NCBI RefSeq assembly: GCF_054482525.1
Contig: NZ_CM137006.1
Length of the DNA: 64,000 nucleotides
Strand: one strand, 5' to 3'
In this document: positions 63,712 through 64,000 of the stretch, one piece after another
Layout of the letters: every line of letters starts with the position of its first letter
Position numbering within the stretch: position 1 is the first letter of the stretch
Notes under the pieces: generated by a model
What the model was told of the DNA's origin: nothing
What the model saw: the letters and a program-made list of their open reading frames with translations, nothing else
Database searches by the model: none
Program-made: the position numbers and the translations under genes

Positions 63712-64000
63712 TTATTTTTTTGATTTTTGAGTTGCCTCAATTTCTTTTTTTAAACCATGAAGGTTTTTATGACCGGTTCCCTTTGGTTGTAACTGTCCCC
63801 TTTGTAACTTACTGATTCTATTTCCTCTTTCTGATATTACTATTTCATCATTCAGGGATTTTTCAATCAATGCATACAACGCATTGAATACTTTGATGTT
63901 TTCTGATTCCCTCAACTCTTCGAGGATTTTACTTAGTTGTAGAAAGTCATTAATTAAACTAACGCCATTTTTAGGATCGTAAAACTCCTCATGTCGTTTT
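63712..64000 (-). CDS. 3' part of a low-GC gene of unknown function (open to window edge)
   Basis: minus-strand frame open from the window end to stop at 63712 (...KRHEEFYDPKNGVSLINDFLQLSKILEELRESENIKVFNALYALIEKSLNDEIVISERGNRISKLQRGQLQPKGTGHKNLHGLKKEIEATQKSKK*); AT-rich unlike flanking core genes; no family recognised. Confidence 0.4.
   Translation of the reverse strand, partial: KRHEEFYDPKNGVSLINDFLQLSKILEELRESENIKVFNALYALIEKSLNDEIVISERGNRISKLQRGQLQPKGTGHKNLHGLKKEIEATQKSKK

Follow-up and report, generated by a model that had tools for sequence, protein, structure and literature searches.

Which mobile element brought the AT-rich gene that enters the edge of the 64,000-nt stretch of contig NZ_CM137006.1 analysed here (NCBI RefSeq assembly GCF_054482525.1; hereafter the window), and what might its product do? 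A first-pass annotation made from the sequence alone had described a minus-strand open reading frame (ORF) of at least 96 codons beside a transposase remnant and considered it horizontally acquired cargo from its position next to mobile DNA and in place of hipA. Comparison with other assemblies revealed that positions 63610-64000 (391 bp) were 100% identical to one end of a prophage in eight Escherichia coli assemblies (L029-L036), and that the phage homology ended at 63610. The window very probably ends in the last 391 bp of an approximately 8.74-kb prophage of the Inoviridae (UPphi / Ypfphi-CUS-1 group), inserted at dif beside hipA, with the ORF being part of a gene for a 110-amino acid (aa) protein. 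Horizontal acquisition was thereby upheld, although the gene is the accessory gene proximal to the attachment (att) site of a dif-integrated filamentous prophage rather than cargo tied to the transposase remnant.

Prophage identity and gene order

The prophage unit in the eight assemblies was 8,743 bp long and occurred as two tandem copies in L031. From its far end, it comprised dif, two small ORFs, and the core genes in the order pIV secretin, pI/Zot, pVI (DUF5455), pIII (G3P_pilus-bind), pVIII, pVII, pV, and pII, followed by an accessory region encoding a 148-aa helix-turn-helix (HTH) protein on the opposite strand, a DUF3892 protein, a 98-aa protein, and the 110-aa protein. No integrase or recombinase gene was identified in the L029-L036 prophages. 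A perfect E. coli dif (GGTGCGCATAA-TGTATA-TTATGTTAAAT; whole site GGTGCGCATAATGTATATTATGTTAAAT) was present at the far end and a dif-like site at the hipA-proximal end, such that the combination of a regenerated dif at one end, a hybrid site at the other, and the lack of an integrase was found in the eight assemblies sharing the prophage end of the window. Six of the eight contained hipA beyond the prophage end, as a 141-aa remnant in L034 and intact in the other five (L031-L033, L035, and L036), where it was situated approximately 77 bp from the junction. The usual position of dif is some 77 bp downstream of hipA. As the same prophage end adjoins an intact hipA in these five assemblies, the AT-rich gene does not replace hipA, contrary to the earlier suggestion.

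Inovirus core genes in conserved order were present in L029-L036 and in the circular 9.0-kb contig L002, all of which carried an identical or 98% identical 110-aa gene, and none were located inside the window. Across 68% of its length, the phage core shared 86% identity with the UPphi prophages in strain ECONIH2, UPphi being a published group of dif-integrated inoviruses (Shapiro and Putonti, 2020; PMC7307601), and the whole-phage DNA had no match in 50,697 phage records. Weighing against the assignment of the window copy, the rest of the prophage lies outside the window and is deduced from the identical ends in other assemblies, and the copy could in principle be a truncated remnant such as that observed in Dickeya (see below). 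With the assignment to a dif-integrated inovirus, the annotation of the locus becomes precise, placing the end of the window 391 bp inside a XerCD-integrated filamentous prophage.

The pII/pV genes and the whole accessory module were 92-94% identical to L002, the morphogenesis genes of which were a different set with a Ypfphi/CUS-like organisation. The L002-type backbone was identified in 84 of 5,426 complete E. coli genomes and never with this cargo. Comparison of L002 with L029 displayed the same module (pV, pII, HTH, DUF3892, 98-aa, and 110-aa genes, and att) on two unrelated morphogenesis modules, Ypfphi/CUS-like in the former and IKe/UPphi-like in the latter, which fits the production of hybrid phages from mixed tandem arrays at dif.

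The terminal gene

The minus-strand frame was open from a TAA stop codon at 63712-63714 to position 63999, giving 95 sense codons (the 96 codons previously counted included the stop), with base 64000 as the third base of codon 15, and the other two minus-strand frames contained many stops. The low GC content noted in the first-pass annotation was confirmed, with 32% for the part of the ORF in the window compared to 49% for the whole window and 45-53% for neighbouring genes, as was the charged, Lys/Glu-rich C-terminus (KKEIEATQKSKK). The translated fragment exactly matched residues 16-110 of the 110-aa protein P0123 ("MULTISPECIES: hypothetical protein [Enterobacteriaceae]"), which was present in dozens of draft assemblies and metagenomes. 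The 5' end was correctly placed off the window, but its extent is not indefinite, since the full length of P0123 leaves only 15 codons outside and sets the start codon at approximately 64044, 44 nt past the edge. The lack of any match among the 5,426 complete E. coli genomes, K-12 included, showed that it was not an ordinary K-12 gene at this locus.

The ratio of nonsynonymous to synonymous substitution rates (dN/dS) was 0.04-0.11 wherever dS could be measured, and between genera dS was saturated with dN values of 0.09-0.36. Because it was found as P0123 in dozens of assemblies and showed dN/dS of 0.04-0.11, the gene is real and under purifying selection.

Attachment site and integration

The region between the chromosomal flank and the stop codon of the terminal gene contained two inverted dif-like sites separated by a GC-rich stem-loop (Table 1), features that identify the element and had gone unnoticed in the first-pass annotation. 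The XerC arm of site A was identical to that of the E. coli dif, its central region was 11 nt long, and its XerD-like arm had two mismatches to the dif XerD arm (one match found, with 0 expected by chance). Only 6 nt separated the end of site B from the ORF stop, and this site was kept in all related phages whichever cargo gene preceded it, and the pair of sites A and B was present in all related phage copies. Since the core genes are encoded on the plus strand in related loci, the plus strand of the window corresponds to the phage (+) strand.

Table 1. Coordinates of the features identified at the end of the window.
Feature	Position	Strand	Description
Whole attP-derived region	63606..63716	+	Predicted forked hairpin on the packaged phage (+) strand, with a 6-nt bulge in the central region
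dif-like site A	63612..63644	+	GGTGCGCATAA-TGTGCTACACG-TTATGTTGAAA; prophage/chromosome junction
GC-rich stem-loop	63646..63677		GGCCGCTGCG, 12-nt loop, CGCAGCGGCC; tip of the forked att hairpin
dif-like site B	63679..63705	-	GGTTCGCACAA-TGACG-TTATGCTAAAG; inverted partner of site A (pattern scan)
Terminal accessory gene	63712..64000	-	3' 289 nt of the 333-nt gene: codons 16-110, the stop, and one base of codon 15

Folding of 63600-63720 as single-stranded DNA (ssDNA) gave -33.3 kcal/mol (z = -8.5; 0 of 200 shuffles folded as well), pairing the XerC arm with the XerC arm and the XerD arm with the XerD arm. The consensus fold of 11 att sites from E. coli, Dickeya, and Proteus contained 30 pairs, five of which had compensatory changes, and the att sequence differences among E. 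coli variants clustered in the bulge. This forked-hairpin architecture has been described for CTXphi attP(+) and proposed for Ypfphi (PMC4246890; PMC4266046), while inverted XerC/D sites have been described in Ypfphi, which is listed together with CUS-1 in the CTXphi class (PMC4266046; PMC4246890). The in silico features agree with a CTX-type IMEX, in which a filamentous phage relies on XerCD and a folded ssDNA attP. By analogy with the CTXphi and Ypfphi literature, host XerC would swap a single pair of strands to join the folded hairpin to dif, and replication would then complete an integration that would be irreversible. The products would be the hybrid site beside hipA (63612-63644) and, at the opposite prophage end, an intact dif.

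The stem-loop was followed by TTTTC on the minus strand and may also terminate the transcript of the ORF. It was rejected as a canonical intrinsic terminator, as the terminator scan made no call and the element has a loop of more than 8 nt and only four T. The att hairpin of approximately 100 nt merits annotation together with the gene.

The variable att-adjacent slot

The interval between the repressor and att held different genes in related phages, encoding a 140-aa membrane protein and an unrelated 110-aa protein in APEC E19057, proteins of 60/46/91/230 aa or 60/140/91/159 aa in ECONIH2, and proteins of 139 and 363 aa in ESBLEC_MG32. Near-identical phages sharing this att have their slot filled by unrelated genes, which makes the 110-aa gene dispensable cargo and not a replication, assembly, or integration function. 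It was antisense to the phage core genes, as is the repressor gene, and can thus be expressed only from double-stranded DNA (the prophage or replicative form). Published data are in line with a variable slot: Ypfphi and CUS-1 have different ORFs next to attL (PMC4266046), and "other ORFs in these positions" have been described for UPphi prophages (PMC7307601). As far as can be told, the slot of the window phage represents one of the latter and not h4 or h5 of UPphi901; identity with either of these genes was not claimed, with the ECONIH2 UPphi copies holding different slot genes.

The 98-aa and 110-aa genes were co-directional and 23 bp apart. The 98-aa gene was also identified without the 110-aa gene: in Proteus mirabilis inoviruses it was the sole occupant of this slot, and in Kosakonia it came after a different gene. 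In L029, the 154-bp divergent region between the DUF3892 gene and the 98-aa/110-aa operon contained a perfect 8-bp inverted repeat (GATAACTA-N7-TAGTTATC; 9551-9573) that was also kept in Dickeya and could be an operator.

DNA homology between the different contexts of the 110-aa gene was bounded, extending from approximately 33 bp upstream of the ATG to 46-69 bp past the stop codon with site B included, and the gene and site B occurred together in L004 and L012. These limits point to a dif-integrating element as the source from which the gene was copied. Two further interpretations were dropped: that the gene functions as one unit with the Xer site, as sister phages have this att behind unrelated genes, and that the gene lies in an Acinetobacter-type pdif module, as no XerC/D-like sites were found near the plasmid-borne homologues.

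Protein family and predicted structure

The family of the 110-aa protein was very rare, with 24 clusters at 50% identity among 1.84 billion representatives and two loci in 100,044 species genomes. No relative was found in the 2.9 million viral contigs of IMG/VR, and the protein had no match in the 50,697 phage records. A single unannotated remnant was recovered from 72,556 plasmids, on the Methylobacter sp. plasmid NZ_CP091426.1 (L001), where a 58% identical fragment (residues 12-73; 6001-6183) adjoined a Tn3 transposase and is probably a pseudogene remnant.

In agreement with the first-pass annotation, in which the product could not be placed in any family or given a function, profile and structure searches of Pfam, PHROG, NCBIfam, PADLOC, and PDB returned no match. 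A Pfam scan of 20 family members gave weak hits to HD_4 for six of them (E >= 0.026), which were judged spurious, and phrog_2435 (function unknown) recurred weakly in the PHROGs search with a best E value of 0.0027. This kind of element and the uncharacterised accessory ORFs in its slot have already been published, whereas the protein family is undescribed.

The protein has a mass of 12.7 kDa and an isoelectric point of 9.7, lacks a hydrophobic segment, and is basic in its C-terminal third. The AlphaFold monomer was all-helical with four helices and a mean predicted local distance difference test (pLDDT) score of 78. A dimer modelled as a tandem fusion of two copies with the alignment of 24 family members raised the block means for residues 11-70 from 69-88 in the monomer to 93-98 and the number of residues with pLDDT >= 90 from three to 119, whereas the tail after approximately residue 80-85 fell to 41-54. 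A helical homodimer core (residues ~3-83) with a disordered basic C-terminal tail is therefore predicted by the model, although a fused and duplicated alignment can inflate the confidence of such a dimer. The best-conserved motif after the core was ERGxRIxKLQ+GQxQPKGTGHK in the tail. Some family members ended right after this motif, and two had a pentapeptide-repeat domain instead of the tail. These two members of approximately 205 aa (metagenomic loci L025-L028) were encoded between a DUF4238 gene and the gene for a 241-aa membrane protein, with which they may form a three-gene system.

Family neighbourhoods and possible function

All eight distinct contexts of the family contained a co-directional gene 15-165 bp upstream of the family member. 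This gene encoded the 98-aa YbjQ-like protein in the E. coli, Salmonella, and Dickeya phage; a 346-aa ParA-like AAA_31 ATPase on six metagenomic contigs, where the homologue was 91% identical; a 153-aa protein resembling the ThsB C-terminal region in Proteus; a 245-aa membrane protein beside CTD8/MC4 genes in Serratia; the C5 methylase of a type II restriction-modification (R-M) system on Rep_3/Mob plasmids; a 178-aa LmuA-like PD-(D/E)xK protein on a metagenomic contig near AIPR and FRG genes; DUF4238 for the pentapeptide-fusion members; and DUF5682 in Moraxella, inside a conserved MoxR-VWA operon. The possibility that these partners are divergent homologues of each other was discarded after all-against-all BLASTP displayed no similarity among them. 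One study reported strong T7 resistance from a DUF4238 protein (bioRxiv 10.1101/2021.01.21.427644), a link between DUF3892 and defence has been made (bioRxiv 10.1101/2022.04.27.489752), and inoviruses commonly carry shuffled toxin-antitoxin (TA) and superinfection-exclusion genes (PMC6813254). The neighbours of the family thus appear to be mostly conflict-related. In addition, the accessory trio in Dickeya (L046) and a pair including the family member in Proteus (L010) persisted in mini-elements without a phage core.

From these contexts and the predicted structure, it is tentatively proposed that the 110-aa protein may be a cytoplasmic homodimer that acts by binding rather than catalysis, as a small antitoxin-like regulator or adaptor of mobile conflict cassettes such as defence, superinfection-exclusion, or addiction modules. 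Its flexible, conserved tail would engage some target that is itself conserved in the cell, and not the operon partner, which varies. A broader and rather doubtful formulation is that the protein founds an undescribed family of small dimeric proteins acting as a portable, partner-independent module (regulator, sensor, or broad antitoxin, its disordered tail engaging a conserved target) of defence/addiction cassettes that would spread via the att-adjacent slot of dif-integrating elements, which in several genera behave like arrayed conflict-gene cassettes at dif. Just as doubtful is that such a module has been attached after R-M, DUF4238, LmuA-like nuclease, ThsB-like, ParA-like ATPase, and YbjQ-like effectors. 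Several observations weigh against the proposed regulator or adaptor function: the defence-context argument is based on approximately eight neighbourhoods without a statistical background; no toxin can be recognised in the 98-aa partner, which is also found where the 110-aa gene is absent, arguing against an obligate pair; and the Dickeya copy, sharing 98-100% identity with those of E. coli, tells little about selection by being retained.

The gene might instead be a stand-alone lysogenic-conversion or anti-defence moron hitting a protein of the host or of a competitor phage, with its placement reflecting where the cassette landed, and this is conceivable while open to considerable doubt. The tight limits of the homologous cassette, the independent mobility of the 98-aa neighbour, the insertion of the gene within the conserved MoxR-VWA operon in Moraxella, and the retention of the tail motif whatever the partner are all consistent with a solitary gene. 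However, the close co-directional upstream gene in all eight contexts suggests operon membership, the candidate moron is without a known target, and no homologue was found in the 2.9 million viral contigs or the 50,697 phage records.

An addiction pair formed with the 98-aa YbjQ-like protein, stabilising the prophage or its replicative form, is unlikely. The co-directional arrangement of the two genes 23 bp apart on a mobile element would suit such a pair, the predicted dimeric N-terminal core and disordered C-terminal tail resemble type II antitoxins, inoviruses often hold TA pairs with shuffled partners (PMC6813254), and both genes persisted in the Dickeya mini-element that lacks the phage core. 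Nevertheless, neither protein matched TA, Pfam, NCBIfam, PHROG, or PADLOC models and their co-occurrence was not obligatory, as seen from the solitary 98-aa gene in the Proteus mirabilis slot and its different predecessor in Kosakonia. Family members also paired with eight unrelated upstream genes, and the tail motif was constant across partners, which is unexpected for a tail that wraps a toxin.

A centromere-binding or segregation adaptor (ParG/ParB-like) that maintains the replicative form or a plasmid is very improbable. The 91% identical homologue follows the ParA-like ATPase in the same order as parA-parB, family members occur on Rep_3/Mob plasmids, and the modelled architecture, in which a flexible basic tail extends from a dimeric core, is similar to adaptors of the ParG type. 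Yet the ParA-like partner was seen in one lineage only, no ParA accompanied the gene in the inovirus, R-M, DUF4238, and Serratia contexts, and the model was all-helical rather than ribbon-helix-helix (RHH), with no ParB or RHH match in Pfam. Repeats resembling a centromere were not seen either, although no search aimed at them was made. Finally, an Xer accessory factor at the forked att that aids integration, excision, or cassette exchange, analogous to XafT (TLCphi) or RstB (CTXphi), agrees with the stop codon lying 6 nt from site B, the joint occurrence of the gene and site B in L004 and L012, and homologues adjoining the forked att in the Proteus mini-element with three small genes, but is highly unlikely given that the same att is accompanied by unrelated genes in APEC E19057, ECONIH2, and ESBLEC_MG32 and hence does not need the factor, that most distant family members had no Xer-like site nearby, that the Pfam scan of 20 members gave no DUF3653/XafT match, and that CTX-type integration requires host XerC/XerD only (PMC4246890).

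The hipA flank and other cassettes at dif

The chromosomal flank differed between the window and the eight matching assemblies. In the window, hipA broke off at 62895, behind codon 82, and continued directly into the remnant of a frameshifted ISNCY transposase gene (62896-63569, minus strand) that reached the att site. The same insertion sequence (IS) remnant followed by att was found at 99% identity in ESBLEC_MG32 (L003), where hipA was intact and a SIR2 gene was situated between hipA and the IS. Because ESBLEC_MG32 keeps an intact hipA with the same IS remnant and att, the truncation of hipA in the window appears to be a separate deletion, apparently from within hipA into the IS. In L003 (9336-12160), the SIR2 gene and the ISNCY remnant lay between two att-like copies (9336-9411 and 12051-12160) and have the appearance of cargo from an older cassette integrated at dif ahead of the Ypfphi-like prophage.

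Further cassettes were identified at dif in other genera. In Proteus sp. fly-1067 (L010, 6746-11830), two phage-less mini-elements were arranged in tandem after a canonical dif, each with a conserved left end of approximately 300 bp and a forked att hairpin at the other end. Unit 1 (1.66 kb) contained a family member with a 153-aa and a 105-aa gene and unit 2 an nSTAND3 NTPase, an arrangement reminiscent of conflict genes arrayed at dif in integron-like fashion. In Dickeya zeae (L046 and L047, 8568-10433), a 1.84-kb element between the Dickeya dif and an att junction carried the truncated HTH, DUF3892, 98-aa, and 110-aa genes at 98-100% identity to E. coli with the phage core entirely deleted, and the XerC arm of its junction was of the host type (GGTTCGCATAA). 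Tandem att-bounded mini-cassettes at dif in Proteus, Dickeya, and E. coli, with SIR2, nSTAND3, or the present module, are perhaps of wider interest than the gene itself. Elsewhere in the window, a very AT-rich segment (56250-56700; GC 0.25-0.29) was located directly upstream of the gene for a 1806-aa autotransporter (56753-62173).

Comparison with known systems

The prophage resembles the UPphi901 group in combining IKe/I2-2-like morphogenesis genes with a Ypfphi-like gene II/V module, in its position at the E. coli dif beside hipA with tandem copies, and in att-adjacent accessory ORFs (h3-h5 in UPphi901) that are present in some members only (PMC7307601). It differs from the ECONIH2 UPphi copies, to which identity was ~86% over 68%, in its 148-aa HTH regulator (compared to 60 aa) and in the other genes of the slot. 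As in Ypfphi (YPO2271/YPO2272) and CUS-1 (orf1/orf1a), small ORFs without an assigned function are situated between an rstR-like HTH repressor and the att end, and the slot ORFs of these two phages differ though the phages are otherwise 99% identical (PMC4266046). Judged by gene content, the slot of the window phage differs from both in containing the DUF3892, 98-aa YbjQ-like, and 110-aa genes.

Hyperpromiscuous antitoxin domains (PanA/DUF4065) represent a precedent in which one small conserved protein is found with many unrelated neighbours on mobile elements. The 110-aa family is similar to PanA and type II antitoxins in its many unrelated partners and in its predicted dimeric core and disordered tail. 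It is distinguished by the lack of sequence or profile similarity, by a small gene placed downstream rather than upstream, by its rarity (24 clusters), and by partners that include a methylase and a ParA-like ATPase and are not obvious toxins.

The att-adjacent slot of dif-integrating inoviruses houses lysogenic-conversion functions, the best-known example being ctxAB in CTXphi, and the accessory slot genes of the E. coli, Yersinia, and Salmonella phages remain uncharacterised. Among these, the 110-aa protein is tractable, being small, conserved, under purifying selection, present in E. coli, Salmonella, and Dickeya hosts, and recurrent beside defence genes. The window phage differs from CTXphi in host and sequences and in an inter-site spacer of ~34 nt compared to ~90 nt, and its cargo is without similarity to ctxAB or rstC of CTXphi/RS1. 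It nevertheless shares with CTXphi the two inverted dif-like sites, a forked hairpin of (+) ssDNA predicted here in silico, the putative use of host XerCD, tandem prophages, and cargo adjacent to att (PMC4246890).

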